A stretch of 64,000 nucleotides of DNA, taken from assembly GCA_026770705.1 (NCBI GenBank), contig JANJGN010000163.1:868001-932000 (forward strand), written 5' to 3'. Under the pieces are notes generated by a model. That model did not search any database and was not told the DNA's origin. It saw only the letters and a program-made list of their open reading frames with translations. This document shows positions 29,776-60,028 of the stretch, piece by piece; position 1 is the first letter of the stretch; the number at the start of each line of letters is the position of its first letter. This stretch comes from Isurus oxyrinchus. Its lineage: Eukaryota. Position numbers and translations under genes: made by a program.

Positions 29776-29824
29776 ATGCTTCCCGGAGTTTACTCTCTCA
29801 TCTCGGTGGCTGCGATTTTGCCAC
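29776..29824 (+). CDS. TRBV: Leader (signal peptide) exon of a TCR-beta-like V gene, MLPGVYSLISVAAILP+1 nt
   Basis: ATG at 29776, 16 mostly hydrophobic codons plus 1 nt (49 bp, a common TRBV leader-exon length), donor C|GTATGT. The phase-1 junction joins in frame to the V exon (C+GA = Arg). Confidence 0.75.
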
Positions 29825-29884
29825 GTATGTCAAAGTTCACCAGGTAGTGGGGGGAGGGGGGGGGTAATTGTTTCTGATACTGAG

Positions 29885-29990
29885 TTGCGATTTAGTCGGT
29901 AGAAACTCTCACATCTGAGTGAGTAGGTGAGAGGAAGGAGATTCACTCCAGACGGTTTGAGCTTGAAGCCAAGGCTGGAAACTCCATGTG
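29885..29990 (+). mobile_element. 5' tRNA-derived head of a Deu-domain (SacSINE1-like) SINE, interrupted by the 22-bp array
   Basis: ttagtcggtagaaactctcacatctgagt...cactccaga...ttgagc...aggctggaaactcca follows the recalled consensus tcagttggtagcactctcgcctctgagt...cactccag...ttgagc...aggctgacactcca. Confidence 0.6.
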
Positions 29991-32900
29991 TCACTACTGA
30001 ACTCTCCATGTGTCACTACTGAACTCTCCATGTGTCACTACTGAACTCTCCATGTGTCACTACTGGACACTCCATGTGTCACTACTGAACTCTCCATGTG
30101 TCACTACTGAACTCTCCATGTGTCACTACTGGACACTCCATGTGTCACTACTGGACACTCCATGTGTCACTACTGAACTCTCCACGTGTCACTACTGAAC
30201 TCTCCATGTGTCACTACTCGACACTCCATGTGTCACTACTGAACTCTCCATGTGTCACTACTGAACTCTCCATGTGTCACAATTGAACTCTCCATGTGTC
30301 ACTACTGAACTCTCCACGTGTCACTACTGAACTCTCCATGTGACACTACTCGACACTCCATGTGTCACTACTGAACTCTCCATGTGTCACTACTGAACTC
30401 TCCATGTGTCACTACTCGACACTCCATGTGTCACTACTGAACTCTCCATGTGTCACTACTGGACAATCCATGTGTCACTACTGAAATCTCCATGTGTCAC
30501 TACTCGACACTCAATGTATCACTACTGAACGCTCCATGTGTCACTACTGGACACTCCATGTGTCACTTCGGGACACTCAATGTGTCACTACTAAACTCTC
30601 CATGTGTCACTACTGGACATTCCATGTGCCACTACTGAACTCTCCATGTGTCACTACTGGACACTCCACGTGTCACTACTAGACACTCCATGTGTCACTA
30701 CTGGACATTCCATGAGTCACTACTGAACTCTCCATGTGTCACTACTGAACTCTCCATGTATCACTACTGGACACTCCATGTGACACTACTAGACACTCCA
30801 TGTGTCACTACTGGACGCTCCATGTGTCACTACTGGACATTGCATGTGTCACTACTGAACTCTCCATGTGTCAGTACAGAACTCTCCATGTGTCACTACT
30901 CGACACTACATGTGTCACTACTGAACTCTCCATGTGTCACTACTGGACACTCCATGTGTCACTACTGTACATTCAATGTGTCACTACTGAACTCTCCACG
31001 TGTCACTACTGGACACTCGATGTGTCACTACTGAACTCCCCATGTGTCACTACTCGACACTCCATGTGTCACTACTGAACTCTCCATGTGTAACTACTGA
31101 ACAATAGGTGTCACTACTGAACTCTCCATGTGTCACTACTGGACTCTCCATGAGTCACTACTGGACACTCCATGTGTCACTACTGGACACTCCATGTTTC
31201 ACTACTGAACTCCCCATGTGTCACTACTGGACACTCCATCAGTCACTACTGGACACTCCATGTGTCACTACTGAACTCTCCATGTCTCACTACTGAACTC
31301 TCCATGAGTCACTACAGGACACTCCATGTGTCACTACTGAACTCTCAATGTGTCACTACTGGACACTCCATGTGTCACTACCCGACACACCATGTGTCAC
31401 TACTGGACACTTCATGTGTCACTGCTGGATACTCCATGTGTCACTACTGAACTCTCCATGTGTCACTACTGGACACACCATGTGTCACTACTGGACACTC
31501 CATGTATCACTACCGAACTCTCCATGTGTCATTACCGGACACTCCATGTGTCATTACTGGACACTCCATGTGTCACTACTGGACACTCCATGTGTCACTA
31601 CTGGACACTCCATCTGTCACTACTGAACTCTCCATGTGTCACTACTGAACTCTCCATGTGTCACTGCTGGACACTCCATGTGTCACTACTGAACTCTCCA
31701 TGTGTCACTACTGGACACTCCATGCATCACTACTGAACTCTCCATGCGTCACTACTGGACACTCCATGTCACACAATTGAACTCTCCATGTGTCACTACT
31801 CGACACTCTATGTATCACTACTGAACGCTCCATCTGTCACTACCGGACATTCCATGTGTCACTACTGGACACTCCATGTGTCACTACTGAACTCTCCATG
31901 TGTCACTACTGGACACTCCAAGTGTCACTACCGGACACTCCATGTGTCACTACCGGACATTCCATGTGTCACTACTGAACTCTCCACGTGTCACTACTAG
32001 ACACTCCACGTGTCACTACTGAACTCTCCATGTGTCACTACTGAACTCTCCATGTGTTACTACTGAACTCTACATGTGTCACTACTGAACTCTCTATGTG
32101 TCACTACTGAACTCTCCATGTGTCACTACTGAACTCTCCATGTGTCACTACTGAACTCTCCATGTGTCACTACTGAACTCTCTATGTGTCACTGCTGAAC
32201 TCTCCATGTGTCACTACTGAACTCTCTATGTGTCACTGCTGAACTCTCCATGTGTCACTACTGAACTCTCCATGTGTCACTACTGAACTCTCCATGTGTC
32301 ACTACTGGACACTCCAAGTGTCACTACTGAAGTCTCCATGTGTCACTACTGAGCTCTCCATGTGTCACTACTGAACTCTCCATGTGTCACTACTGGACAA
32401 TCCATGTGTCACTACTGAAATTTCCATGTGTCACTACTCGACACTCAATGTATCACTACTGAACGCTCCATGTGTCACTACTGGACATTCCATGTGTCAC
32501 TACTGAACTCTCCATGTGTCACTTCTGGACACTCCACGTGTCACTACTAGACACTCCATGTGTCACTACTGGACATTCCATGAGTCCCTACTGAACTCTC
32601 CATGTGTCACTACTGAACTCTCCATGTGTCACTACTGGACACTCCATGTGACACTACTAGACACTCCATGTGTCACTACTGGACACTCCTTGTGTCACTA
32701 CTGGACATTGCATGTGTCACTACTGAACTCTCCATGTGTCACTACAGAACTCTCCATGTGTCACTACTCGACACTACATGTGTCACTACTGAACTCTCCA
32801 TGTGTCACTACTGAACTCTCCATGTGTCACTACTGGACACTCCATGTGTCTCTACTGAACTCTCCATGTGTCACTACTGAACTCTCCATGTGTCGCTACT

Positions 32901-35900
32901 GGACACTCCATGTGTCACTACTGAACTCCCAATGTGTCACTACTCGACACTCCATGTGTCACTACTGAAATCTCCATGTGTAACTACTGAACTCTAGGTG
33001 TCACTACTGAACTCCCCATGTGTCACTACTGGACTCACCATGAGTCACTACTGGACGCTCCATGTGTCACTACTGGACACTCCATGTGTCACTACTGAAC
33101 TCTCCATGTGTCACTACTGAACTCTCCATGTGTCACTACTGGACACTTCATGTGTCACTACTGAACTCTCCATGTGTCACTACTGGACATTCCATGTGCC
33201 ACTACTGAACTCTCCATGTGTCACTACTGGACACTCCACGTGTCACTACTAGACACTCCATGTGTCACTACTGGACATTCCTTGAGTCACTACTGAACTC
33301 TCCATGTGTCACTACTGAACTCTCCATGTATCACTACTGGACACTCCATGTGACACTACTAGACACTCCATGTGTCACTACTGGACGCTCCATGTGTCAC
33401 TACTGGACATTGCATGTGTCACTACTGAACTCTCCATGTGTCAGTACAGAACTCTCCATGTGTCACTACTCGACACTACATGTGTCACTACTGAACTCTC
33501 CATGTGTCACTACTGGACACTCCATGTGTCACTACTGTACATTCAATGTGTCACTACTGAACTCTCCACGTGTCACTACTGGACACTCGATGTGTCACTA
33601 CTGAACTCCCCATGTGTCACTACTCGACACTCCATGTGTCACTACTGAACTCTCCATGTGTAACTACTGAACAATAGGTGTCACTACTGAACTCTCCATG
33701 TGTCACTACTGGACTCTCCATGAGTCACTACTGGACACTCCATGTGTCACTACTGGACACTCCATGTTTCACTACTGAACTCCCCATGTGTCACTACTGG
33801 ACACTCCATGAGTCACTACTGGACACTCCATGTGTCACTACTGAACTCTCCATGTCTCACTACTGAACTCTCCATGAGTCACTACAGGACACTCCATGTG
33901 TCACTACTGAACTCTCAATGTGTCACTACTGGACACTCCATGTGTCACTACCCGACACACCATGTGTCACTACTGGACACTTCATGTGTCACTGCTGGAT
34001 ACTCCATGTGTCACTACTGAACTCTCCATGTGTCACTACTGGACACACCATGTGTCACTACTGGACACTCCATGTATCACTACCGAACTCTCCATGTGTC
34101 ATTACCGGACACTCCATGTGTCATTACTGGACACTCCATGTGTCACTACTGGACACTCCATGTGTCACTACTGGACACTCCATCTGTCACTACTGAACTC
34201 TCCATGTGTCACTACTGAACTCTCCATGTGTCACTGCTGGACACTCCATGTGTCACTACTGAACTCTCCATGTGTCACTACTGGACACTCCATGCATCAC
34301 TACTGAACTCTCCATGCGTCACTACTGGACACTCCATGTCACACAATTGAACTCTCCATGTGTCACTACTCGACACTCTATGTATCACTACTGAACGCTC
34401 CATCTGTCACTACCGGACATTCCATGTGTCACTACTGGACACTCCATGTGTCACTACTGAACTCTCCATGTGTCACTACTGGACACTCCAAGTGTCACTA
34501 CCGGACACTCCATGTGTCACTACCGGACATTCCATGTGTCACTACTGAACTCTCCACGTGTCACTACTAGACACTCCACGTGTCACTACTGAACTCTCCA
34601 TGTGTCACTACTGAACACTCCATGTGTTACTACTGAACTCTACATGTGTCACTACTGAACTCTCTATGTGTCACTACTGAACTCTCCATGTGTCACTACT
34701 GAACTCTCCATGTGTCACTACTGAACTCTCCATGTGTCACTACTGAACTCTCTATGTGTCACTGCTGAACTCTCCATGTGTCACTACTGAACTCTCTATG
34801 TGTCACTGCTGAACTCTCCATGTGTCACTACTGAACTCTCCATGTGTCACTACTGAACTCTCCATGTGTCACTACTGGACACTCCAAGTGTCACTACTGA
34901 AGTCTCCATGTGTCACTACTGAGCTCTCCATGTGTCACTACTGAACTCTCCATGTGTCACTACTGGACAATCCATGTGTCACTACTGAAATTTCCATGTG
35001 TCACTACTCGACACTCAATGTATCACTACTGAACGCTCCATGTGTCACTACTGGACATTCCATGTGTCACTACTGAACTCTCCATGTGTCACTTCTGGAC
35101 ACTCCACGTGTCACTACTAGACACTCCATGTGTCACTACTGGACATTCCATGAGTCCCTACTGAACTCTCCATGTGTCACTACTGAACTCTCCATGTGTC
35201 ACTACTGGACACTCCATGTGACACTACTAGACACTCCATGTGTCACTACTGGACACTCCTTGTGTCACTACTGGACATTGCATGTGTCACTACTGAACTC
35301 TCCATGTGTCACTACAGAACTCTCCATGTGTCACTACTCGACACTACATGTGTCACTACTGAACTCTCCATGTGTCACTACTGAACTCTCCATGTGTCAC
35401 TACTGGACACTCCATGTGTCTCTACTGAACTCTCCATGTGTCACTACTGAACTCTCCATGTGTCGCTACGGGACACTCCATGTGTCACTACTGAACTCCC
35501 AATGTGTCACTACTCGACACTCCATGTGTCACTACTGAAATCTCCATGTGTAACTACTGAACTCTAGGTGTCACTACTGAACTCCCCATGTGTCACTACT
35601 GGACTCACCATGAGTCACTACTGGACACTCCATGTGTCACTACTGGACACTCCATGTGTCACTACTGAACTCTCCATGTGTCACTACTGAACTCTCCATG
35701 TGTCACTACTGGACACTTCATGTGTCACTACTGAACTCTCCATGTGTCACTACTGGACACTCCATGTGTCACTACTGGACACTTCATGTGTCACTACTGA
35801 ACTCTCCATGTGTCACTACTGAACTCTCCATGTGTCACTACTGGACACTCCATGTGTCACTAAAGACTCTCCATGTGTCACTACTGAACTCTCCATGTGT

Positions 35901-38900
35901 CACTACTGGACACTCCATGTGTCACTGCTGAACTCTCCATGTGTCACTACTGAACTCTCCATGTGTCACTACTGGACACTCCATGTGTCACTGCTGAACT
36001 CTCCATGTGTCACTACTGAACTCTCCATGTGTCACTACTGAACTCTCCATGTGTCACTACTGGACACTCCATGTGTCACTGCTGAACTCTCCATGTGTCA
36101 CTACTGAACTCTCTATGTGTCACTGCTGAACTCTCCATGTGTCACTACTGAACTCTCCATGTGTCACTACTGAACTCTCCATGTGTCACTACTGGACACT
36201 CCATGTGTCACTACTGAACTCTCCATGTGTCACTACTGAGCTCTCCATGTGTCACTACTCGACACTCCATGTGTCACTACTGAACTCTCCATGTGTCACT
36301 ACTGGACAATCCATGTGTCACTACTGAAATCTCCATGTGTCACTACTCGACACTCAATGTATCACTACTGAACGCTCCATGTGTCACTACTGGATACTCC
36401 ATGTGTCACTACTGGACACTCAATGTGTCACTACTAAACTCTCCATGTGTCACTACTGGACATTCCATGTGTCACTACTGAACTCTCCATGTGTCACTGC
36501 TGGACACTCCATGTGTCACTACTGGACATTCCATGTGTCACTACTGAACTCTCCATGTGTCACTTCTGGACACTCCACGTGTCACTACTAGACACTCCAT
36601 GTGTCACTACTGGACATTCCATGAGTCCCTACTGAACTCTCCATGTGTCACTACTGAACTCTCCATGTGTCACTACTGGACACTCCATGTGACACTACTA
36701 GACACTCCATGTGTCACTACTGGACGCTCCTTGTGTCACTACTGGACATTGCATGTGTCACTACTGAACTCTACAAGTGTCACTACTGAACTCTCCATGT
36801 GTCACTACTGAACTCTCCATGTGTCACTACTGGACACTCCATGTGTCACTACTGAACTCTCCATGTGTCACTACTGAACTCTCCATGTGTCACTACTGGA
36901 CACTCCATGTGTCACTACTGGACACTCCATGTGTCACTACTGAACTCCCCATGTGTCACTACTCGACACTCCATGTGTCACTACTGAACTCTCCATGTGT
37001 AACTACTGAACTCTAGGTGTCACTACTGAACTCTCCATGTGTCACTACTGGACTCTCCATGAGTCACTACTGGACACTCCATGTGTCACTACTGGACACT
37101 CCATGTGTCACTACTGAACTCTCCATGTGTCACTACTGAACTCTCCATGTGTCACTACTGGACACTCCATGTGTCACTACTGAACTCTCCATGTGTCACT
37201 ACTGGACACTCCATGTGTCACTACTGGACACTTCATGTGTCACTACTGAACTCTCCACGTGTCACTACTGGATACTCCATGTGTCACTACTGAACTCCCC
37301 ATGTGTCACTACTCGACACTCCATGTGTCACTGCTGAACACTAGGTGTCACTTCTGAACTCTCCATGTGTCACTACTGGACTCTCCATGAGTCCCTATTG
37401 GACACTCCATGTGTCACTACTGAACTCTCCATGTGTCACTACCGAACTCTCCATGAGTCACTACAGGACACTCCATGTGTCACTACTGAACTCTCCATGT
37501 GTCACTACTGGACACTCCATGTGTCACTACTCGACACACCATGTGTCACTACTGGACACTCCATGTGTCACTGCTGGACACTCCATGTGTCACTACCGAA
37601 CCCTCCATGTGTCAGTACTGGACACTCCATGTATCACTACCGAACCCTCCATGTGTCATTACCGGACACTCCATTTGTCATTACTGGATACTCCATGTGT
37701 CACTACTGGACACTCCATGTGTCACTACTGGACACTCCATCTGACACTACTGAACTCTCCATGTGTCACTACTGAACTCTCCATGTGTCACCACTGGACA
37801 CTCCATGTGTCACTACTGGACACTCCATGCGTCACTACTGAACTCTCCATGTGTCACTACTGGACACTCCATGTCTCACAATTGAACTCTCCATGTGTCA
37901 CTACTGGACACTCCAAGTGTCACTACCGGACACTCCATGTGTCACTACCGGACATTCCATGTGTCACTACTGAACTCTCCATGTGTCACTAGTGGACACT
38001 CCACGTGTCACTACTGGACACTCCATGTGTCACTACTGAACTCTCCATGTGTCACTACTGAACTCTCCATGTGTCACTACTGGACACTCCATGTGTCACT
38101 ACTGAACTCTCCATGTGTCACTACTGGACACTCCATGTGTCACTACTGAACTCTCCACATGTCACTACTCGACAATCCATGTATCACTACTGAACACTCC
38201 ATGTGTCACTACTGGACACTCCATGTGTCACTACTGTACATTCAATGTGTCACTACTGAACTCTCCATGTGTCATTACTGGACACTCAATGTGTCACTAC
38301 TGGACATTTCACGTGTCACTACTAGACACTCCATGTCTCACTACTGGACATTCCATGTGTCACTACTGAACTCTCCATGTGTTACTACTGAACTCTACAT
38401 GTGTCACTACTGAACTCTCTATGTGTCACTACTGAACTCTCCATGTGTCTCTACTGAACTCTCCACGTGTCACTACTGAACTCTCCACGTGTCACTACTG
38501 AACTCTCTATGTGTCACTACTGAACTCTCTATGTGTCACTACTGAACTCTCCATGTGTCACTACTGAACTCTCTATGTGTCACTTCTGGACACTCCATGT
38601 GTCACTACTGAACTCTCCATGTGTCACTACTGCGCTCTCCATGTGTCACTACTCGACACTCCATGTGTCACTACTGAACTCTCCATGTGTCACTACTGGA
38701 CACTCCATGTGTCACTACTGAACTCTCCATGTGTAACTACTGAACTCTAGGTGTCACTACTGAACTCTCCATGTGTCACTACTGGAATCTCCATGAGTCA
38801 CTACTGGACACTCCATGTGTCACTACTGAACTCTCCATGTGTCACTACTGAACTCTCCATGAGTCACTACAGGACACTCCATGTGTCACTACTGAACTCT

Positions 38901-41900
38901 CCATGTGTCACTACTGGACACTCCATGTGTCACTACTCGACACACCATGTGTCACTACTGGACACTCCATGTGTCACTGCTGGACACTCCATGTGTCACT
39001 ACTGAACTCTCCATGTGTCAGTACTGGACACTCCATGTATCACTACCGAACTCTCCATGTGTCATTACCGGACACTCCATGTGTCATTACTGGATACTCC
39101 ATGTGTCACTACTGGACACTCCATGTGTCACTACTGGACACTCCATCTGTCACTACTGAACTCTCCATGTGTCACTACTGAACTCTCCATGTGTCACCAC
39201 TGGACACTGCATGTGTCACTACTGGACACTCCATGCGTCACTACTGAACTCTCCATGCGTCACTACTGGACACTCCATGTCTCACAATTGAACTCTCCAT
39301 GTGTCACTACTCGACACTCCATTTATCACTGCTGAACGCTCCATCTGACACTACCGGACATTCCATGTGTCACTACTGGACACTCCATTTGTCACTACTG
39401 AACTCTCCATGTGTCACTACTGGACACTCCATGTGTCACTACCGGACACTCCATTTGTCACTACCGGACATTCCCTGTGTCACTACTGAACTCTCCATGT
39501 GTCACTACTGGACACTCCATGTGTCACTACTAGACACTCCATGTGTCACTACTGAACTCTCCATGTGTCACTGCTGGACACTCCATGTGTCACTACTGGA
39601 CACTCCATGTGTCACTACTGAACTCTCCATGTGTCACTACTGCACTCTCCATGTGTCACTACTCGACACTCCATGTGTCACTACTGAACTCTCCATGTGT
39701 CACTGCTGGACACTCCATGTGTTACTACTGGACACTCCATGTGTCACTACTGAACTCTCCATGTGTCACTACTGCACTCTCCATGTGTCACTACTCGACA
39801 CTCCATGTGTCACTACTGAACTCTCCATGTGTCACTGCTGGACACTCCATGTGTCACTACTGAACTCTCCATGTGTAACTACTGAACTCTAGGTGTCACT
39901 ACTGAACTCTCCATGTGTCACTACTGGACTCTCCATGAGTCACTACTGGACACTCCATGTGTCACTACTGAACTCTCCATGTGTCACTACTGAACTCTCC
40001 ATGAGTCACTACAGGACACTCCATGTGTCACTACTGAACTCTCCATGTGTCACTACTGGACACTCCATGTGTCACTACTCGACACACCATGTGTCACTAC
40101 TGGACACTCCAGGTGTCACTGCTGGACACTCCATGTGTCACTACTGAACTCTCCATGTGTCAGTACTGGACACTCCATGTATCACTACCGAACTCTCCAT
40201 GTGTCATTACCGGACACTCCATGTGTCATTACTGGATACTCCATGTGTCACTACTGGACACTCCATGTGTCACTACTGGACACTCCATCTGTCACTACTG
40301 AACTCTCCATGTGTCACTACTGAACTCTCCATGTGTCACCACTGGACACTCCATGTGTCACTACTGGACACTCCATGCGTCACTACTGAACTCTCCATGC
40401 GTCACTACTGGACACTCCATGTCTCACAATTGAACTCTCCATGTGTCACTACTCGACACTCCATTTATCACTGCTGAACGCTCCATCTGACACTACCGGA
40501 CATTCCATGTGTCACTACTGGACACTCCATTTGTCACTACTGAACTCTCCATGTGTCACTACTGGACACTCCATGTGTCACTACCGGACACTCCATTTGT
40601 CACTACCGGACATTCCCTGTGTCACTACTGAACTCTCCATGTGTCACTACTGGACACTCCATGTGTCACTACTAGACACTCCATGTGTCACTACTGAAAT
40701 CTCCATGTGTCACTGCTGGACACTCCATGTGTCACTACTGGACACTCCATGTGTCACTACTGAACTCTCCATGTGTCACTACTGCACTCTCCATGTGTCA
40801 CTACTCGACACTCCATGTGTCCCTACTGAACTCTCCATGTGTCACTGCTGGACACTCCATGTGTCACTACTGAACTCTCCACATGTCACTACTCGACACT
40901 CCATGTATCACACTGAACACTCCATGTGTCACTACTGGACACTGCATGTGTCACTACTGGGCATTCCACGTGTCACTACTAGACACTCCATGTCTCACTA
41001 CTGGATATTCTATGAGTCACTACTGAACTCTCCATGTGTCACTACTGAACTCTACATTTGTCACTACTGGACACTCCATGTGACAATACTAGACACTCCA
41101 TGTGTCACTACTGGACCCTACTTGTGTCACTACTGGACATTGCATGTGTCACTACTGAACTCTCCATGTGTCACTACAGAACTCTCCATGTGTCACTACT
41201 CGACACTACATGTGTCACTACTGAACTCTCCTTTTATTTGTACTGAACTCTCCATGTGTCACTACTGAAATCTCCATGTGTCACTACTGGACACTCCATG
41301 TGTCACTACTGAACTCTCCATGTGTCACTACTGAACTCTCCATGTGTCACTACTGGACACTCCATGTGTCACTACTGAACTCTCCATGTGTCACTACTGA
41401 ACTCCCCATGTGTCACTACTCGACACTCCATGTGTCACTACTGAACTCTCCATGTGCAACTACTGAACTCTAGGTGTCACTACTGAACTCTCCATGTGTC
41501 ACTACTGGACTCTCCATGAGTCACTACTGGACACTCCATGTGTCACTACTGAACTCTCCATGTGTCACTACTGAACTCTCCATGAGTCACTACAGGACAC
41601 TCCATGTGTCGCTACTGAACTCTCCATGGGTCACTACTGGACACTCCATGTGTCACTACTGGACACTCCATTTGTCACTACCGGACATTCCCTGTGTCAC
41701 TACTGAACTCTCCATGTGTCACTACTGGACACTCCACGTGTCACTACTAGACACTCCATGTGTCACTACTGGACACTCCATGTGTCACTGCTGGACACTC
41801 CATGTGTCACTACTGAACTCTCCATGTGTCAGTACTGGACACTCCATGTATCACTACCGAACTCTCCATGTGTCATTACCGGACACTCCATGTGTCATTA

Positions 41901-44900
41901 CTGGATACTCCATGTGTCACTACTGGACACTCCATGTGTCACTACTGGACACTCCATCTGTCACTACTGAACTCTCCATGTGTCACTACTGAACTCTCCA
42001 TGTGTCACCACTGGACACTCCATGTGTCACTACTGGACACTCCATGCGTCACTACTGAACTCTCCATGCGTCACTACTGGACACTCCACGTCTCACAATT
42101 GAACTCTCCATGTGTCACTACTCGACACTCCATGTATCACTACTGAACGCTCCATCTGTCACTACCGGACATTCCATGTGTCACTACTGGACACTCCATG
42201 TGTCACTACCGGACACTCCATTTGTCACTACCGGTCATTCCCTGTGTCACTACTGAACTCTCCATGTGTCACTACTGGACACTCCACGTGTCACTACTAG
42301 ACACTCCATGTGTCACTACTGAACTCTCCATGTGTCACTGCTGGACACTCCATGTGTCACTACTGGACACTCCATGTGTCACTGCTGGACACTCCATGTG
42401 TCACTACTGAACTCTCCATGTGTCAGTACTGGACACTCCATGTATCACTACCGAACTCTCCATGTGTCATTACCGGACACTCCATGTGTCATTACTGGAT
42501 ACTCCATGTATCACTACTGGACACTCCATGTGTCACTACTGGACACTCCATCTGTCACTACTGAACTCTCCATGTGTCACTACTGAACTCTCCATGTGTC
42601 ACCACTGGACACTCCATGTGTCACTACTGGACACTCCATGCGTCACTACTGAACTCTCCATGCGTCACTACTGGACACTCCATGTCTCACAATTGAACTC
42701 TCCATGTGTCACTACTCGACACTCCATTTATCACTGCTGAACGCTCCATCTGACACTACCGGACATTCCATGTGTCACTACTGGACACTCCATTTGTAAC
42801 TACTGAACTCTCCATGTGTCACTACTGGACACTCCATGTGTCACTACCGGACACTCCATTTGTCACTACCGGACATTCCCTGTGTCACTACTGAACTCTC
42901 CATGTGTCACTACTGGACACTCCATGTGTCACTACTAGACACTCCATGTGTCACTACTGAACTCTCCATGTGTCACTGCTGGACACTCCATGTGTCACTA
43001 CTGGACACTCCATGTGTCACTACTGAACTCTCCATGTGTCACTACTGCACTCTCCATGTGTCACTACTCGACACTCCATGTGTCACTACTGAACTCTCCA
43101 TGTGTCACTGCTGGACACTCCATGTGTTACTACTGGACACTCCATGTGTCACTACTGAACTCTCCATGTGTCCCTACTGCACTCTCCGTGTGTCACTACT
43201 CGACACTCCATGTGTCACTACTGAACTCTCCATGTGTCACTGCTGGACACTCCATGTGTCACTACTGAACTCTCCATGTGTAACTACTGAACTCTAGGTG
43301 TCACTACTGAACTCTCCATGTGTCACTACTGGACTCTCCATGAGTCACTACTGGACACTCCATGTGTCACTACTGAACTCTCCATGTGTCACTACTGAAC
43401 TCTCCATGAGTCACTACAGGACACTCCATGTGTCACTACTGAACTCTCCATGTGTCACTACTGGACACTCCATGTGTCACTACTCGACACACCATGTGTC
43501 ACTACTGGACACTCCAGGTGTCACTGCTGGACACTCCATGTGTCACTACTGAACTCTCCCTGTGTCAGTACTGGACACTCCATGTATCACTACCGAACTC
43601 TCCATGTGTCATTACCGGACACTCCATGTGTCATTACTGGATACTCCATGTGTCACTACTGGACACTCCATGTGTCACTACTGGACACTCCATCTGTCAC
43701 TACTGAACTCTCCATGTGTCACTACTGAACTCTCCATGTGTCACCACTGGACACTCCATGTGTCACTACTGGACACTCCATGCATCACTACTGAACTCTC
43801 CATGCGTCACTACTGGACACTCCATGTCTCACAATTGAACTCTCCATGTGTCACTACTCGACACTCCATTTATCACTGCTGAACGCTCCATCTGACACTA
43901 CCGGACATTCCATGTGTCACTACTGGACACTCCATTTGTCACTACTGAACTCTCCATGTGTCACTACTGGACACTCCATGTGTCACTACCGGACACTCCA
44001 TTTGTCACTACCGGACATTCCCAGTGTCACTACTGAACTCTCCATGTGTCACTACTGGACACTCCATGTGTCACTACTAGACACTCCATGTGTCACTACT
44101 GAAATCTCCATGTGTCACTGCTGGACACTCCATGTGTCACTACTGGACACTCCATGTGTCACTACTGAACTCTCCATGTGTCACTACTGCACTCTCCATG
44201 TGTCACTACTCGACACTCCATGTGTCACTACTGAACTCTCCATGTGTCACTGCTGGACACTCCATGTGTCACTACTGAACTCTCCACATGTCACTACTCG
44301 ACACTCCATGTATCACACTGAACACTCCATGTGTCACTACTGGACACTGCATGTGTCACTACTGGGCATTCCACGTGTCACTACTAGACACTCCATGTCT
44401 CACTACTGGACATTCTATGAGTCACTACTGAACTCTCCATGTGTCACTACTGAACTCTACATTTGTCACTACTGGACACTCCATGTGACACTACTAGACA
44501 CTCCATGTGCCACTACTGGACCCTACTTGTGTCACTACTGGACATTGCATGTGTCACTACTGAACTCTCCATGTGTCACTACAGAACTCTCCATGTGTCA
44601 CTACTCGACACTACATGTGTCACTACTGAACTCTCCTTTTATTTGTACTGAACTCTCCATGTGTCACTACTGAACTCTCCATGTGTCACTACTGGACACT
44701 CCATGTGTCACTACTGAACTCTCCATGTGTCACTACTGAACTCTCCATGTGTCACTACTGGACACTCCATGTGTCACTACTGAACTCTCCATGTGTCACT
44801 ACTGAACTCCCCATGTGTCACTACTCGACACTCCATGTGTCACTACTGAACTCTCCATGTGCAACTACTGAACTCTAGGTGTCACTACTGAACTCTCCAT

Positions 44901-46780
44901 GTGTCACTACTGGACTCTCCATGAGTCACTACTGGACACTCCATGTGTCACTACTGAACTCTCCATGTGTCACTACTGAACTCTCCATGAGTCACTACAG
45001 GACACTCCATGTGTCGCTACTGAACTCTCCATGGGTCACTACTGGACACTCCATGTGTCACTACTGGACACTCCATTTGTCACTACCGGACATTCCCTGT
45101 GTCACTACTGAACTCTCCATGTGTCACTACTGGACACTCCACGTGTCACTACTAGACACTCCATGTGTCACTACTGGACACTCCATGTGTCACTGCTGGA
45201 CACTCCATGTGTCACTACTGAACTCTCCATGTGTCAGTACTGGACACTCCATGTATCACTACCGAACTCTCCATGTGTCATTACCGGACACTCCATGTGT
45301 CATTACTGGATACTCCATGTGTCACTACTGGACACTCCATGTGTCACTACTGGACACTCCATCTGTCACTACTGAACTCTCCATGTGTCACTACTGAACT
45401 CTCCATGTGTCACCACTGGACACTCCATGTGTCACTACTGGACACTCCATGCGTCACTACTGAACTCTCCATGCGTCACTACTGGACACTCCACGTCTCA
45501 CAATTGAACTCTCCATGTGTCACTACTCGACACTCCATGTATCACTACTGAACGCTCCATCTGTCACTACCGGACATTCCATGTGTCACTACTGGACACT
45601 CCATGTGTCACTACTGAACTCTCCATGTGTCACTACTGGACACTCCATGTGTCACTACCGGACACTCCATTTGTCACTACCGGTCATTCCCTGTGTCACT
45701 ACTGAACTCTCCATGTGTCACTACTGGACACTCCACGTGTCACTACTAGACACTCCATGTGTCACTACTGAACTCTCCATGTGTCACTGCTGGACACTCC
45801 ATGTGTCACTACTGGACACTCCATGTGTCACTACTGAACTCTCCATGTGTCACTACTGAACTCTCCATGTGTCACTACTCGACACTCCATGTGTCACTAC
45901 TGAACTCTCCATGTGTCACTGCTGGACACTCCATGTGTCACTACTGAACTCTCCACATGTCACTACTCGACACTCCATGTATCACACTGAACACTCCATG
46001 TGTCACTACTAGACACTCCATGTCTCACGACTGGACATTCCATGTGTCACTACTGAACTCTCCATGTGTCACTACTGAACTCTACATGTGTCACAACTGG
46101 ACACTCCATGTGTCACTACTAGACACTCCATGTGTCACTACGGGACACTCCATGTGTCACTACTGGACATTCCATATGTCACTACATAACTCTCCATGTG
46201 TCACTACTGAACTCTCCATTTGTCACTACTCGACATTCCATGTGTCACTACTGAACACTCCATGTATTGCTACTGAACTCTCCATGTGTCACTACTGAAC
46301 TCTCCATGTGTCACTACTGAACTCTCCATGTGTCACTACTGAACTCCACATGTGTCACTACTGAACTCTCCATGTGTCACTACTGAACTCTCCATGTGTC
46401 ACTACTGAACTCTCCATGTGTCACTACTGAACTCCACATGTGTCACTACTGAACTCTCCATGTTTCACTACTGGACACTCCATGTGTCACTACTGAACTC
46501 TCCATGTGTCACTACTGAACTCTACATGTGTCACTACTGAACTCTGCATGTGTCACTACTGAACTCTACATGTGTCACTACTGGACACTCCATGTGTCAC
46601 TACCTAAGTCTGCATCTGTCACTACTGGACACTCCATGTGTCACTACTGAACTCTCCATGTGTCACTACTGAACTCTCCATATGTCACTACAGGACACTC
46701 CATGTGTCACTACCGGACACTCCATGTGTCACTACCGGACACTCCATTTGTCACTACTCGACACTCCATGTGTCACTATT
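29977..46780. repeat. 22-bp satellite array, ~760 copies, two main monomers GAACTCTCCATGTGTCACTACT and GGACACTCCATGTGTCACTACT
   Basis: Direct reading; both ends lie inside the window. The repetitive MCHYWTLHVSLL ORFs are its 66-bp translation cycle. Confidence 0.99.
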
Positions 46781-47150
46781 ACCGGGAACAACACCCTTCC
46801 CGAGTGACCATCTCTTTTGGGGGTGTGGGGGGGGCAGTGTGGGACATGAGACGGGTCCGTCCCCTCAGCTGTTGGAAAGTGACTCCATAGTACCTGTTGT
46901 TGTTGATGGGGAGGGGGAACAGCAGGGAGCTCCCCTGCGCCCTTTGCAAACTTCTGAAACCGACCAGCACCCTTTCAGCAAAGAAATAAATCCCCAAATC
47001 TATTGCCCGCTAATGGTATTTGCTGTCTGGAATCTTGCTGCCTGCAAATTGGCGCTGGCCTTATCCACAGTGACTGCTCTTTGAGAATAGAAACAGCCTT
47101 TGGGTGGGAAGCGCTCTGGAAAAGGCCTGAGGCTTTAATTTGTCTCTTTC
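46781..47150 (+). mobile_element. 3' part of the same Deu-domain SINE
   Basis: Blocks atgagacg, ccgtcccctcag, gaacagcagggagctcccc, ttgctgtctggaatcttgctgcctgcaaattggc, acagtgact and aagcgctctgga occur in the order recalled for this SINE's body and tail. Confidence 0.65.
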
Positions 47151-47215
47151 CAGGCACCCCTCCTTCATAGCAGCAGGACTGGAAATGTGAACCTACTCCA
47201 TGTTCCACTCCACAG

Positions 47216-47510
47216 GAATTCTGGCCTCTTATGTGGAGCAGTTCCCTTCTACCGAGTCTCTGTCAGCAGGAGAATCCACAACCCTCGAGTGCACTCTGAG
47301 CAGTACTGCATCTCGCTCCATGTCCTGGTACACACAACAGGCAGATCGGGCAATGGAAGCTCTGTTCTATTCTGCTGGGAAAGATATGGTGACAAATGAC
47401 ACCGCCGACTCTCTGAGCACCAACAGGTCCAGCGATACCCTGTTTACCCTGGAATTGAGAGGCGCCTCTCTCTCTCACGCCGCTCTCTGCTCCTGTGCTT
47501 GTAGTTATTG
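47216..47510 (+). CDS. TRBV: T-cell receptor beta-like V exon (TRBV30-like), open frame, atypical FR3
   Basis: Acceptor ttccactccacag|. Translation ILASYVEQFP...TLECTLSSTASRSMSWYTQQ...ALFYS...LFTLEL...HAALCSCACSY has the first Cys, the Trp 12 residues later and the second Cys. Followed immediately by an RSS. Confidence 0.9.
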
Positions 47511-47549
47511 CACAGCCAGTGAGAAAGCGGATCCGCAGGCACAAAAACC
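47511..47549 (+). other. V(D)J recombination signal sequence, 23-bp spacer
   Basis: Heptamer CACAGCC (47511-47517), exactly 23 nt, then consensus nonamer ACAAAAACC (47541-47549). Confidence 0.96.
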
Positions 47550-48520: not shown

Positions 48521-50674
48521 AGATATCAGACTTGGGATGTCAACCTGGAATTGACAATCTAATTAGATATCACACTTGGGACGTCAACCTAGACTTGACA
48601 ATCTAATTAGATATCAGACTTGGGATGTCAACCTGGAATTGACAATCTAATTAGATATCAGACTTGGGATGTCAACCTGGAATTGACAATCTAATTGGAT
48701 ATCAGACTTGGGATGTCAACCTGGAATTGACAATCTAATTAGATATCAAACTTGGGATGTCAACCTGGAATTGACAATCTAATTAGATATCAAACTTGGG
48801 ATGTCAACCTGGAATTGACAATCTAATTAGATATCAGACTTGGGATGTCAACCTGGAATTGACAATCTAATTAGATATCAGACTTGGGATGTCAACCTGG
48901 AATTGACAACCTAATTAGATATCAAACTTGGGATGTCAACCTGGAATTAACAACCTAATTAGATATCAAGCTTGGGATGTCAACCTGGAATTAACAATCT
49001 AATTAGATATCAAACTTGGGATGTCAACCTGGAATTGACAATCTAATTAGATATCAGACTTGGGATGTCAACCTGGAATTGACAATCTAATTAGATATCA
49101 GATTTGGGATGTCAACCTGGAATTGACAATCTAATTAGCTATCAGATTTGGGATGTCAACCTGGAATTGACAATCTAATTAGATATCAGACTTGGGATGT
49201 CAACCTGGAATTGACAATCTAATTAGATATCAGATTTGGGATGTCAACCTGGAATTGACAATCTAATTAGATATCAAACTTGGGATGTCAACCTGGAATT
49301 GACAATCTAATTAGATATCAAACTTGGGATGTCAACCTGGAATTGACAATCTAATTAGATATCAGACTTGGGATGTCAACCTGGAATTGACAATCTAATT
49401 AGATATCAGACTTGGGATGTCAACCTGGAATTGACAATCTAATTAGATATCAGACTTGGGATGTCAACCTGGTATTGACAATCTAATTAGATATCAAACT
49501 TGGGATGTCAACCTGGAATTGACAATCTAATTAGATATCAGACTTGGGATGTCAACCTGGAATTGACAATCTAATTAGATATCAAACTTGGGATGTCAAC
49601 CTGGAATTGACAATCTAATTAGATATCAGACTTGGGATGTCAACCTGGAATTGACAATCTAATTAAATATCAGATTTGGGATGTCAACCTGGTATTGACA
49701 ATCTAATTAGATATCAAACTTGGGATGTCAACCTGGAATTGACAATCTAATTAGATATCAGACTTGGGATGTCAACCTGGAATTGACAATCTAATTAGAT
49801 ATCAAACTTGGGATGTCAACCTGGAATTGACAATCTAATTAGATATCAAGCTTGGGATGTCAACCTGGAATTGACAATCTAATTATATATCGGACTTGGG
49901 ATGTCAACCTGGAATTGACAATCTAATTAGATATCAGACTTGGGATGTCAACCTGGAATTGACAATCTAATTAGATATCAGATTTGGGATGTCAACCTGG
50001 AATTGACAATCTAATTAGATATCAGACTTGGGATGTCAACCTGGAATTGACAATCTAATTAGATATCAGACTTGGGATGTCAACCTGGAATTGACAATCT
50101 AATTAGATATCAAACTTGGGATGTCAACCTGGAATTGACAATCTAATTAGATATCACACTTGGGATGTCAACCTGGAATTGACAATCTAATTAGATATCA
50201 AGCTTGGGATCTCAACCTGGAATTGACAATCTAATTAGATATCAGACTTGGGATGTCAACTTGGAATTGACAATCTAATTAGATATCAGACTTGGGATGT
50301 CAACCTGGAATTGGCAATCTAATTAGATATCAAAGTTGGGATGTCAACCTGGAATTGACAATCTAATTAGATATCAGACTTGGGATGTCAACCTGGAATT
50401 GACAATCTAATTAGATATCAGACTTGGGATGCCAACCTGGAATTGACAATCTAATTAGATATCAGACTTGGGATGTCAACCTGGAATTGGCAATCTAATT
50501 AGATATCAAAGTTGGGATGTCAACCTGGAATTGACAATCTAATTAGATATCAGACTTGGGATGTCAACCTGGAATTGACAATCTAATTAGATATCACACT
50601 TGGGATGTCAACCTGGAATTGACAATCTAATTAGATATCAGACTTGGGATGTCAACCTGGAATTGACAATCTAA
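48521..50674. repeat. 44-bp satellite, ~49 copies, AGATATCAGACTTGGGATGTCAACCTGGAATTGACAATCTAATT
   Basis: Head-to-tail, highly homogeneous units. Contains TGTCAA-N7-TTGACA and the perfect palindrome ATCTAATTAGAT across the unit junction. Confidence 0.99.
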
Positions 50675-50908
50675 CGATGACTATGAATCCAATATCGATT
50701 GTCGTAAAACCCCATCTGCCTCACCAATGTCCCTTGAGGGAGGGAAATCTGCTGTCCTTACCCCGGTCTGGCCTACATGTGACTCCAGACCCACAGCAAT
50801 GTGGTTAACTGTTAGAAACGCTCTCTGAACAAGGGCGGTTATGGATGGGTAAGAAATGCTGGCCTAGCCAGTGACACCCACATCCCATGAATGAATAGCA
50901 AAAGAAAT
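50658..50908 (+). mobile_element. 5'-truncated elasmobranch-type SINE with A-rich tail
   Basis: gatgactatgaa...cgattgtcgtaaaaccccatctg...ggcctacatgtgactccagacccacagcaatgtgg...aaatgctggcctagccagtgacacccacatcccatgaatgaata matches a recalled abundant shark repeat. Confidence 0.75.
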
Positions 50909-52742: not shown

Positions 52743-53040
52743 CTCTCTCTCTCTCTCTCTCTACACCCAGCACATCCTCACCCCCCACTCCCCCCCTCCC
52801 CACTCACCCCACCCCCCCCCACCCCCCACTTCCCCCTCCCCAATCCACCCACCCCCCACTGCCTCCAATACCCCTAACCCCCCTCCCCCACCCCCCAGGC
52901 CCCTCTACCCCCTCCAACCACTCACCCTCCCTCCCACTGCCCCCACTCGCTCCCCCCACTCCCCCACTCACTGCACCCTCCCCCCCACACCCTCCCCCCC
53001 CCCTCCCCTGCTCCGTCCCCCCTCCTTCCACTCCCCCCTT
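52743..53040. repeat. (CT)n plus C-rich low-complexity tract at the 5' truncation point of Penelope copy A
   Basis: Direct reading; accounts for the Pro-rich N-terminus of ORF 52696..53952. Confidence 0.9.
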
Positions 53041-55292
53041 CCCGCTGACAAGGGTGGTGCTGTTGTTGTCTGGCGCACTGACCTCTACCTCACAGAGGCT
53101 GAGCGTCAACTCGCAGACACTTCCTCCTACCTCTCCCTGGACCATGACCCCACCACTGAACATCAAGCCATTGTTTCCAGGACTGTCACTGACCTCATCT
53201 CCTCTGGGGATCTCCCTCCCACAGCTTCCAACCTGATAGTCGCCCAACCTCGGACGGCCCGCTTCTATCTCCTACCCAAAATCCACAAACAGAACTGTCC
53301 CGGTAGACCGATCGTCTCAGCTTGCTCCTGCCCCACAGAACTCATTTCTCGTTATCTTGACTCCCTTCTCTCTCCCCTTGTCCAGTCCCTTCCCACCTAC
53401 ATCCGTGATTCCTCTGACACCTTACGTCACATCAACAATTTCCAGTTCCCTGGCCCCAACCGCTTCCTCTTCACCATGGACATCCAATCTCTCTACACCT
53501 CCATCCCCCACCAGGATGGTCTGAGGGCCCTTAGTTTCTTCCTCGAACAGAGGCCCGAACAATCCCCATCCACCACTACTCTCCTCCGTCTGGCTGAACT
53601 TGTTCTCACACTGAACAATTTCTCCTTCAACTCCTCTCACATCCTCCAAATAAACGCTGTGGCTATGGGTACCCACATGGGCCCCAGCTATGCCTGTCTC
53701 TTTATGGGGTATGTGGAACATTCCTTGTTACAGTCCTACCCCGGCCCCCTCCCACAACTTTTTCTCCGGTACATCGATGATTACTTCGGTGCCGCTTCAA
53801 GCTCTCGTCGGGACTTGGAAAAATTTATTAATTTTGCTTCCAAACTCCATCCCTCCATCATTTTCACGTGGTCCATCTCTGACACTTCCTTTCCCTTCCT
53901 TGACCTCGCTGTCTCAATCTCTGGTGATAGACTGTCCACCAATGTCCGTTAGAAAAATACCGACTCCCACAGCTACCTCGACTACAGTTCCTCACACCCC
54001 GCTTCCTGTAAGGACTCCATCCCATTCTCCCAGTTCCTTCGCCTTCGTCGCATCTGTTCCGATGATGCTACCTTCAAAAACAGTTCATCTGACATGTCCT
54101 CCTTCTTCCTTAACCGAGGTTTTCCACCCACGGTCGTTGACAGGGCCCTCAACCGTATCCAGCCCAACTCTGGCGTATTTGCCCTCACGCCTTCTCCTCT
54201 CTCCCAGAAACATGATAGTGTCCCCCTTGTCCTCACTTCTACCCCACCAGCCTCCGCATTCAAAGGATCATCCTCCGCCATTTCCGCCAACTCCAGCATG
54301 ATGCCACCACCAAACACATCTTCCCTTCACCCCCCTTATCGGCATTCCGTAGGGATCGCTCCCTCCGGGACACCCTGGTCCACTCCTCCATCACCCCCTA
54401 CTCCTCAACCCCCTCCTATGGCACCACCCCATGCCCACGCAAAAGGTGTAACACTTGCCCCTTCACTTCCTCTCTCCTCACCGTCCAAGGGCCCAAACAC
54501 TCCTTTCAAGTGAAGCAGCATTTCACTTGCATTTCCCCCAACTTAGTCTACTGCATTCGTTGCTCCCAATGTGGTCTCCTCTACATTGGAGAGACCAAAC
54601 GTAAACTGGGTGACCGCTTTGCAGAACACCTGCGGTCTGTCCGCAAGAATGACCCAAACCTCCCTGTCGCTTGCCATTTTAACACTCCACCCTGCTCTCT
54701 TGCCCACATGTCTGTCCTTGGCTTGCTGCATTGTTCCAGTGAAGCCCAACGCAAACTGGAGGAACAACACCTCATCTTCCGACTAGGCACCTTACAGCCT
54801 TCCGGTCTGAATATTGAGTTCAATAACTTTAGGTCGTGAGCTCCCTCCCCCATCCCCACCCCCTTTCTGTTTCCCACTTCCTTTTGTTTTTTTTCCAATA
54901 AATTATATAGATTTGTCTTTTTACCAGCTATTTCCATTATTTTTAAATATTTTTAAATCTTTTATGCTCCCCCACCCCCACTAGAGCTGTACCTTGAGTG
55001 TCCTACCATCCATTCTTAATTAGCACATTCGTTTAGATAATATCACCAACTTTAACACCTATGTGTTCTTTTGTTCTGTTGTCTGTGACATCTTTTGTTG
55101 ATCTGCTTCAATCGCTGCTTGTTTGTCCCTACAACCACACCACCCCCCTCCACTTCTCTCCCCCCACCCAACCCACACCTCTCCCCCCAACCCCCCACCC
55201 CCACCTTAAACCAGCTTATATTTCACCCCTTCCTTGGATTCACCTAGTTCTGTCGAAGGGTCATGAGGACTCGAAACGTCCTCTCTTTTCCT
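53041..55292 (+). mobile_element. Penelope-like element copy A (Neptune-type): 5'-truncated RT + GIY-YIG + 3' UTR, inactivated
   Basis: PADKGG, LPKIHK, GRPIVS, SLYT, AMG and YIDD RT motifs; in-frame TAG at 53950; 1-bp frameshift near 54240; Cys-rich linker CPRKRCNTC; LVYCIRCSQCGLLYIGET...PSGLN endonuclease ending at 54839. Confidence 0.95.
55246..55284 (+). ncRNA. Minimal hammerhead-ribozyme-like motif in the PLE 3' repeat
   Basis: CTGTCGA-A-GGGTC-ATGAG-GACTC-GAAAC-GTC. Core variant has U at position A6; the 3' strand of stem I is degraded in this copy. Confidence 0.55.
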
Positions 55293-56755: not shown

Positions 56756-57666
56756 TCAGTTATTCGGTTTGTTCATGAACCGAATAATCGAAGTAACCGG
56801 GTATTTGGCAGCGCTCTTGACCTGCTCCCTGAACCTGGACTGAGTCACCCCATAAATAAATGTGTTTGTGCAGCAACTTAAATTCCGCAGCATATACCCG
56901 AATTGTTGAAATGTATATTCCGATACAGTGTAATAATTGATGTCTGTTCCTGTGATGGTGTAATATAAGAAATCGATAACGAACAGCAACCACAGGAGGA
57001 TGAAGCTGCCCGAGATGGTGAAGAGTAAAATCACAGACTTCCTTCTACTCTCCATCTCTGGGTCACTGTGATCCTGGCCCTTGCTCTGACCCCTCAGACC
57101 CTTACGGACCCGACTGGTCACTAAAATGTGTCTGACTGTCAGGGTGTTGAGGAACAGAATGAAAGCGATTGGGATCAATGGGGTTAAAACTGTATCAAAC
57201 CAGTCAAATCCAATCCATCCGGGATCAGTATAATAGCTTGGATTATCGTAACAGAACCACGGTACATTGTCGATTATCATTCCAGGTTCAAATGTGAAGT
57301 AGAAGGGGATGTTCTTTGCACAGAGCAGAGTGCCGGTTGTTGCTAGGACCACAGCCGCAGTTTTCCCGGTGCAATATTTTGTTTTCAGTTTCTGGCAGCA
57401 AATGGCCACAAATCGGTCACAGGAGAAAGTGACGGTGAACCAGACTGAACAGTCAATGGCTGCACGTCTCAGGATGTAGGTAACAGTACACACAGAGGTG
57501 ATGTCCAGGAAACACCTTGGGAAGTAATAAAAATTGACCTGAAACAGTATGACCTCAGTGATGATGACCAGTAAATCCGCTATTGCCATGGCCACCAGAT
57601 AACGAGTGATGCAGGTGGAGAGACCACACTTTCCCCTGGATAGGATCACAGTTGCCAGTAAATTAA
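56756..57666 (-). CDS. Class A GPCR, GPR139/GPR142-like, exon 2 (end of TM1 to stop)
   Basis: Acceptor ttttctctcttacag|TT. Motifs YLVAMAIADLL (TM2), SVWFTVTFSCDRFVAIC (TM3), RRKSVILLF..FILLW (TM6) and NTFIY (TM7). TGA at 56758-56756. Confidence 0.93.
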
Positions 57667-58892
57667 CTGTAAGAGAGAAAAGGGAAAATAGATGGACATG
57701 ACTGTACGACATTCTCTGTGCCTGAGCTAGACGATAATGACAGGATTTTAGGGCCATAAAAGTGTGGGTTGCGTTTGGGTCAGTCAATAATGTTTTTTAA
57801 AAATCAGAGATTTGTCAAACATGACTTCCCTTTCAAAATCAATGTCAACTCTTCCGAATCTTGCCCCATATTTCTAAGTGCCCAGTGCACATCATTTATA
57901 ATAGATCTGAGTACCACTGATGTCAGGCCAACATGTCTGTTATTGTTGTTATGTTCTCTCTCTCTGTCCCTTCATAAAGAGTGCTGACCCAAATCCTACA
58001 CATTAAGTCCAATATTAATCATGAGAAACAGATAATAAAACTCAGCACTCATGGCTCTCAGCTTGTCACAGATATGTTGGGGGAAGGGGATGAATTAACG
58101 TTATAACATGCAGAGTGTTTCCTGTAACAATACTCAGAATAAAGGATCCCCATGATACAGTCAATTTGATACTGTTAAATATTGATTTGAATCAATCAAT
58201 ATTGAATGTAAATATTGGACGTTATTGATACTGTTGCTGACCTGCTGGGTAACTGTCAGTAAATAGTTAAGTAACGTTCCTGTTTGGGTAGTTCGATAGA
58301 AAATGGAAAAATGTTGATGGATTTCAGTTTCTCCTCTTAGAGCGAAACTTCAACAATTGTGACCCCTTTGCAACTTATTACCATCTGTGGAAGAAGCGTC
58401 AGTTCAATGGGATGGAGAGGTCAATGACCTAAAATCAACATTTCAAAATGTATTTTAAAAGGACGCTTATTTTACTCAATTAATGGTCCATGCTCAGTAC
58501 TATTGTGCGCTCACAGGTGCTCCCAGTAACACAGTGAGGTCAGACGGAGCTTTTTGGTTGTGGATCCACACACAGTAAAATTCCACAATGACTCATGTCC
58601 CCTCCACAAAAATCCACAACAGTTTCCAGCACTGATTGTGCTGACCATATTCTACAGTATTACACTAAATGTGATCATTTCACTTGGCTATGGGTCTTAA
58701 ACAGAAATATTCATTTCCGTCAATTAATGTTGCAACAACTTTTTGATGCTCCTGTGTAGTGAGGCGATATCACGGGTCGGGTGTGTGGATACTGTGTACA
58801 CTGGATCCGCATTTAACATTATCAACCACAAATAAATCCAGAGAGGGGCACACACACACATTTGCACAGCTTCAATGGTTACAGTTGCTTAC

Positions 58893-59559: not shown

Positions 59560-60017
59560 CACCCTGGTCCACTCCTCCATCACTCTCTACACCTCAACCC
59601 CCTCCCACGGCACCTTCCCATGCAACCGCAGAAGGTGCAACACCTGCCCCTTCACTTCCTCTCTCCTCACCGTCCAAGGGCTCAAACACTCCTTTCAAGT
59701 GAAGCAACATTTCACTTGCATTTCCCTCAGTTTAGTCCTGTGCATTCGCAGCTCCCAATGTGGTCTCCTCTACATTGGAGAGACCAAACGTAAACTGGGC
59801 GACCGCTTTGTGGAACACCTGCGGTCTGTCCGCAAGAATGACCCAAACCTCCCTGTCGCTTGCCATTTTAACACTCCACCCTGCTCTCTTGCCCACATGT
59901 CTGTCCTTGGCTTGCTGCATTGTTCCAGTGAAGCCCAACGCAAACTGGAGGAACAACACCTCATCTTCCGACTAGGCACCTTACAGCCTTCCGGTCTGAA
60001 TATTGAATTCAACAACT
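59560..60017 (+). mobile_element. Penelope-like copy B: linker + GIY-YIG fragment, no 3' UTR
   Basis: ORF 59501..60088 contains TLVHSS...CNRRRCNTC...GLLYIGET...PSGLNIEFNN. Confidence 0.92.
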
Positions 60018-60028
60018 ATGAAAAAATA

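Follow-up and report, generated by a model that had tools for sequence, protein, structure and literature searches.

A 22-bp satellite in the leader intron of a shark TCR-beta-like V gene very probably arose within a single decayed SINE copy

Comparison of the array and its flanks with a SINE consensus rebuilt from the genome confirmed, at the level of sequence, that a 22-bp tandem array in the leader intron of a T-cell receptor (TCR) beta-like V gene of Isurus oxyrinchus interrupts one decayed (~63% identical) copy of the SINE, with the two halves still in order on either side. The array very probably arose once, in this intronic SINE, when 22 bases of the decayed copy were duplicated in tandem. 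The window, meaning the whole stretch of DNA analysed, covers 64,000 nucleotides (positions 868,001–932,000 of contig JANJGN010000163.1 in GenBank assembly GCA_026770705.1), and all coordinates given without a contig or locus name refer to it.

The host V gene lies on the forward strand, and the leader exon, intron, V-set exon and 23-bp-spacer recombination signal sequence (RSS) of a TCR beta V gene are all present. The leader exon (29776..29824) runs from an ATG to a splice donor in an open spliced frame, and is followed by an intron of 17,391 bp (29825..47215) with GT and AG in the expected positions. The V exon (47216..47510) contains neither a stop nor a frameshift and encodes an Ig V-set domain (PF07686, E 1.7e-8). 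The adjoining heptamer, 23-bp spacer and nonamer (47511..47549), read from the sequence, fit the RSS consensus. Splicing the leader to the V exon gives an open frame of 114 residues, and the leader with its donor aligned to the corresponding part of a paralog, L079 on contig C31, at 74 of 107 positions (z 11.9). TCR V-beta chains ranked third to seventh among the PDB matches of the V exon product, mixed with antibody chains; the gene is likely to be of the TCR beta class. Of 973 candidates for a C1-set domain, 150 were scored, and none of these gave a match on C31 or C163.

The SINE consensus was rebuilt from the I. oxyrinchus assembly (4.98 Gb) itself, using two separate sets of 30 loci. One set consisted of the first 30 loci seeded on a 23-mer taken from the original prediction, which has 779 exact matches in the genome (control 0), and it yielded a conserved block of 469 bp. 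The other was seeded on the SINE head motif (448 exact genome matches) and was adopted because random stretches gave only three copies across the monomer site in 400 kb; a single locus was common to both sets. Of 468 columns, 452 were identical between the two consensuses, and the 23-mer is present at positions 96–118 of the one seeded on the head, which had not been selected for it. In the 30 + 30 loci the family takes the form of a conserved block of ~470 bp that is short, interspersed, present in many copies and surrounded by unrelated flanks.

Matches to the Pol III box patterns are found in the consensus at positions 11–22 (A box) and 55–65 (B box). Five SINE copies gave no tRNA match in Rfam, nor anything else relevant there, and ARAGORN called a tRNA only when relaxed and allowed to wrap around. 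A search of the fetched loci for a partner LINE of the L2 type, with which the 3′ tail would be shared, did not find one; it returned 21 tail-only matches, none of them with an upstream stop-free frame longer than 138 codons. The dispersed ~470-bp SINE of I. oxyrinchus is likely SacSINE1/DeuSINE, judged by the head type and length described for that family. SacSINE1 is a Deu-domain SINE of sharks, rays and chimaera, with copies that reach 463 bp in the whale shark, and the likeness to it, as far as it is described in the parts of that paper used here, lies in a tRNA-type head with A and B boxes, a length of ~465 bp, old age and abundance; the same parts make no mention of tandem arrays derived from SacSINE1 (PMC5499810).

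A single array was reported by TRF at 29975–46778, with a period of 22, 765 copies and 86% matches; all of it is on the forward strand, and its unit corresponds to SINE positions ~97–118. The 5′ part of the SINE (29883..29974, + strand) precedes it and comprises the head, in which the A and B box regions have decayed (consensus ~7–96), while the 3′ part (46779..47141, + strand) comprises the body and tail and includes a G-rich insertion and a weakly matched first 75 bases. The original prediction had read the left flank as a SINE head and the right flank as the body and tail. With both seeds excluded, the left flank (29904–29974) was identical to the head-seeded consensus at 45 of 68 positions (z 7.0, 0/300 shuffles) and the right flank (46779–47150) at 198 of 312 (z 8.4, 0/300 shuffles), in agreement with that reading. 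The flanks joined with one unit, a join that had been suggested as a check, were collinear with the rebuilt consensus (275/437, z 11.1, 0/200 shuffles), and the controls gave z −0.1 for the reverse strand and −0.3 for the wrong part of the consensus. The 22-bp unit fits exactly into the gap between the two aligned flanks, and the proposal that the monomer is the SINE segment at the point of interruption was thus upheld.

When nhmmer was used, 46855–47141 matched positions 178–440 of the SINE model (E 4.7e-7). The left flank alone, which did match in the pairwise alignment with shuffles, gave no nhmmer match at E<=10. The right junction is weak, with z 2.2 against the consensus for the first 42 bases (27/1000 shuffles) and z 2.1 for 120 bases. 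The bases just to the right of the array showed no similarity to L079 or L080, a second C31 paralog (z −1.4 and −1.2), or to the third internal unit of these two loci (z 1.0 and −0.1). In the sense of PMC10702118, the unit of a SINE-derived satellite is homologous to part of a SINE and shorter than the SINE, as it is here. At least four middle monomers should stand in tandem, and the array has 765 units; the terminal units continue into the SINE toward its end on both sides, with the immediate right junction weak. C163 is a 1.1-Mb contig with other tandem repeats at both ends, and a subtelomeric position is a reported tendency of SINE-derived satellites rather than part of their definition.

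What appears to be the starting state is found in paralogous V genes. A protein search gave 45 V matches, of which 30 were taken as loci. The closest full-length V genes outside the cassettes that carry the array are L079, L080 and L082 on C31 (55, 53 and 44% identity, respectively), and all three carry the SINE, without an array, at the corresponding place in the intron, with the register kept all the way from leader to V exon. Their leader introns are 549–606 bp long, against 17,391 bp in the window copy. The SINE gave no match in 16 other fetched C31 V loci, and no closely related empty-site paralog was found. In a tree of 19 rows, L079, L080 and L082 formed one group with the cassette V genes (support 100/99) to the exclusion of 10 other V rows. 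These unamplified intronic copies lend support to the order of events first envisaged, namely SINE insertion, then decay, then amplification.

The monomer site is 22 bases long in the array, L079 and L080, and 16 in L082. The dispersed copies used for comparison were those of the head-seeded set, in which 4 of the 30 do not cover the monomer site; a length of 22 was seen in none of the other 26, with 16 having 20 bases, two having 21 and eight being shorter. A 2-base insertion in the monomer is common to L079 and L080 and is absent from all 26 dispersed copies. Aligned without a gap, the monomer agrees with L079 and L080 at 18 of 22 bases, and these are its two best matches among 33 copies, by a margin of only 2 points over the consensus (score 28 versus 26). 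Since the insertion is common to L079 and L080 and absent from the dispersed copies, the 22-bp unit most likely derives from this V intron's own SINE copy, once decay had begun. L082 groups with L079 and L080 (89/83) yet does not have the insertion, which was therefore lost there or arose twice.

Other tandem repeats were seen in related V genes. L079 (~1045–1150) and the counterpart region of L080 contain a decayed triplication of their own, in which the repeated piece is the 33-bp segment that lies shortly downstream of the 22-mer site. L081 (on C4065) consists of the 3′ half of a related V exon and its RSS, preceded by a G-rich tandem repeat of another kind where the leader and intron would be.

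Searches with the flanks gave nine left and ten right matches, on C163, C1134 and C1481. The assembly holds ten arrays of the 22-mer, all of them in segmentally duplicated copies of one cassette and with the same flanks, which rules out an array at a single locus and the idea that the monomer might be confined to one. The arrays measure 2.2, 3.0, 3.2, 3.4, 3.8, 7.2, 7.2 and 16.8 kb, together with a partial 1.2-kb duplicate and one of 128,842 bp, and range from 100 to ~5,860 units among the cassette copies. The longest (C163:667348–796189) contains ~5,860 units with neither an N nor an interruption, at its length as assembled. All 1,101 forward and 79 reverse matches (1,180 in total) to a diagnostic 31-mer fell inside the ten known arrays. 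Being based on a single exact 31-mer from one of the unit classes, this test could miss a diverged array elsewhere. The left junction is the same in 9/9 copies compared and the right junction in 7/7. An adjacent locus, L111 (C163:796190–799400), is a partial cassette duplication that lacks a leader and in which a second V exon follows a 54-unit array beginning inside a C-rich tract.

Since all ten arrays are in copies of one cassette, birth would have occurred once, in the ancestral cassette, and the 765 copies would then represent the later length of the window copy. The predicted amplification in situ by ~760-fold is accordingly retained as a birth inside this SINE, and set aside as an account of how the window copy reached its present length. 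Flank divergence among the cassettes is 0–3.1%. One pair has 0.000 flank divergence and 98% of its 110-mers in common, and the two closest pairs may be haplotype duplicates.

Apart from the closest pairs, most of the paralogous arrays have <10% of 110-mers in common. Each array has therefore turned over independently, and they are not collapsed copies of one another. The window array is made up of two interspersed unit classes, with 159 and 107 exact copies among the 765; the second class matches the SINE, and is probably the ancestral one. Unequal exchange is suggested by exact duplications of whole blocks, which measure 2,570 and 3,405 bp in the window array and 3.4–10.3 kb in the 128,842-bp paralog. 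No fixed short higher-order period was found in the window array, where lag identity was 0.86–0.87 over lags 1–60 with one small peak, at lag 52.

Short-read contigs from a second species (organism B), obtained in three runs, span the right junction into monomers and are ~93% identical over 801 bases. Because these contigs cross from the right junction into the monomers, the array likely predates the split from organism B, its sharing being known from that junction. All three runs have a 1-base deletion in the V exon (at window 47415), so the organism B copy is probably a pseudogene.

The history that we propose would begin with a single SINE insertion in the V gene ancestral to this subfamily. 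The first duplication may have resulted from slippage between short CTG repeats that bound the unit; the distance between these is 19 bases in the family consensus, 21 bases in L079 and L080 and 22 in the array, where the right-hand repeat is now degenerate. The array would have been born earlier than both the segmental duplications and the split from a related species, and the individual copies would later have grown and shrunk by unequal crossover or conversion. The array would be neutral and without function, and nothing suggests that it has one.

It could instead be that the array was born in another SINE copy and then moved here through conversion or recombination, driven by homology, at the corresponding site, as this would likewise leave the SINE halves in register, and potential donors are plentiful in a family with 779 and 448 exact motif matches. 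We consider this improbable, because the monomer's insertion is seen in copies of this V lineage and in 0/26 dispersed copies, which disfavours conversion from elsewhere, and no donor array is present among the 1,180/1,180 31-mer matches. SVA elements carry an internal VNTR, and by analogy a SINE subfamily that already had an internal 22-bp tandem repeat may have retrotransposed into the intron, with the C31 paralogs having lost or never had that copy. However, no dispersed SINE copy with the 22-bp unit was found and the SINE in the C31 introns occupies the corresponding position and contains a single unit, making such an origin very improbable even though internal 33-bp arrays between the head and body are frequent in the same SINE family and L079 and L080 have a short internal triplication just downstream.

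An exceedingly improbable reading is that the likeness of the monomer to the SINE is due to chance, or that the long array is partly an assembly artefact. The unit sits precisely at the gap between the aligned flanks, which argues against chance, short as the unit is and weak as the right junction is. Two near-identical cassettes may be duplicated haplotypes and the array lengths rest on the assembly, but short-read contigs of two organisms span the right junction into monomers and most arrays have few 110-mers (<10%) in common. Birth of the array within this intronic SINE is thus the origin that we favour.

A second satellite derived from the same SINE is a 33-bp array (positions 111–143) that overlaps the 22-mer site. 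It was present in 2/40 random stretches, and its tandem junction, with 55,536 exact matches, is far commoner than the 22-mer; the first 100 of these matches lay in clusters, mid-chromosome or close to the ends, on C1 and C2. Examples are L035:8058–8516, L138:256–9982 and L170–L199. Five of the 16 loci examined were all array. Among the other 11, with a score of at least 30 for head or body taken to indicate SINE sequence, six were bracketed by it on both sides, three on one side and two on neither.

Further repeats and one further exon were recorded in the window. A 44-bp array at 48521–50900 (49 units, 96%) continues directly, at its 3′ half, into body and tail sequence belonging to a second SINE-like family, and no SINE head was found to its left. 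It is probably the second array in this cassette to derive, in its case partly, from a SINE. At 1–29030 there is a 32-bp array with at least 904 units here and 77–86 in two paralogs. Its right end adjoins a fragment of the second SINE-like family, and bracketing by a SINE on the left was rejected (z 0.1–0.2). An open 289-codon exon on the minus strand (56801–57667) encodes a rhodopsin-family GPCR (PF00001, E 4e-18). Several copies of one long interspersed repeat with a reading-frame-like composition, probably retrotransposon fragments, are found at 53040–54840 and 59560–64000.

A broader possibility, which we raise tentatively and think rather unlikely to hold, is that the head–body junction of this SINE is a built-in generator of tandem repeats. 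It would have seeded at least two satellites, the 22-mer once and the 33-mer at many loci, and contributed a real share of shark tandem DNA, with the V family recording the passage from one unit through a short triplication to 100–5,860 units while the leader, splice sites and RSS stayed intact. If this were true, a V gene with a satellite intron of 17–129 kb might still rearrange and splice.

The birth of satellites from SINEs is a process already known from reptiles and mammals, and this locus is a well-documented instance of it. No report of SINE-derived satellites in sharks came up in the literature searches, judged from titles and abstract openings, and the present case extends them to a cartilaginous-fish-type genome. 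A satellite's birth generally has to be reconstructed in the absence of the sequence from which it began. At this locus paralogous genes still show the unamplified state, which, together with the ~60-fold span in length of the daughter arrays, provides a clean natural series in which to study how fast minisatellites are born and grow.

The closest parallels are the SINE-derived satellites sSat1–3 of squamates, described from 56 genomes by Vassetzky, Kosushkin and Ryskov 2023, in which some loci have both SINE ends and up to ~1,000 units (PMC10702118). As far as the parts of that report used here describe them, the likeness is that a stretch taken from a tRNA-type SINE forms the tandem unit, that terminal units run into the SINE (to both ends in minor sSat variants), that unit subvariants are interspersed and that unit number varies between related loci. 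In contrast to the squamate units of ~70–290 nt, the unit here is 22 bp, and the host is a cartilaginous fish in which there is one birth locus, with spread only by segmental duplication, the starting state is kept in unamplified paralogs and one copy has ~5,860 units. Minisatellites derived from Alu and B1 in human and mouse (Jurka and Gentles; Bois et al.; Ahmed and Liang), listed in the part of PMC9659126 consulted, are similar in that short units have been amplified from within a SINE copy. The array described here differs from these in belonging to another SINE family, in arising from an old, ~63%-identical copy, in its location in the intron of an antigen-receptor V gene and in forming arrays of tens of kb.
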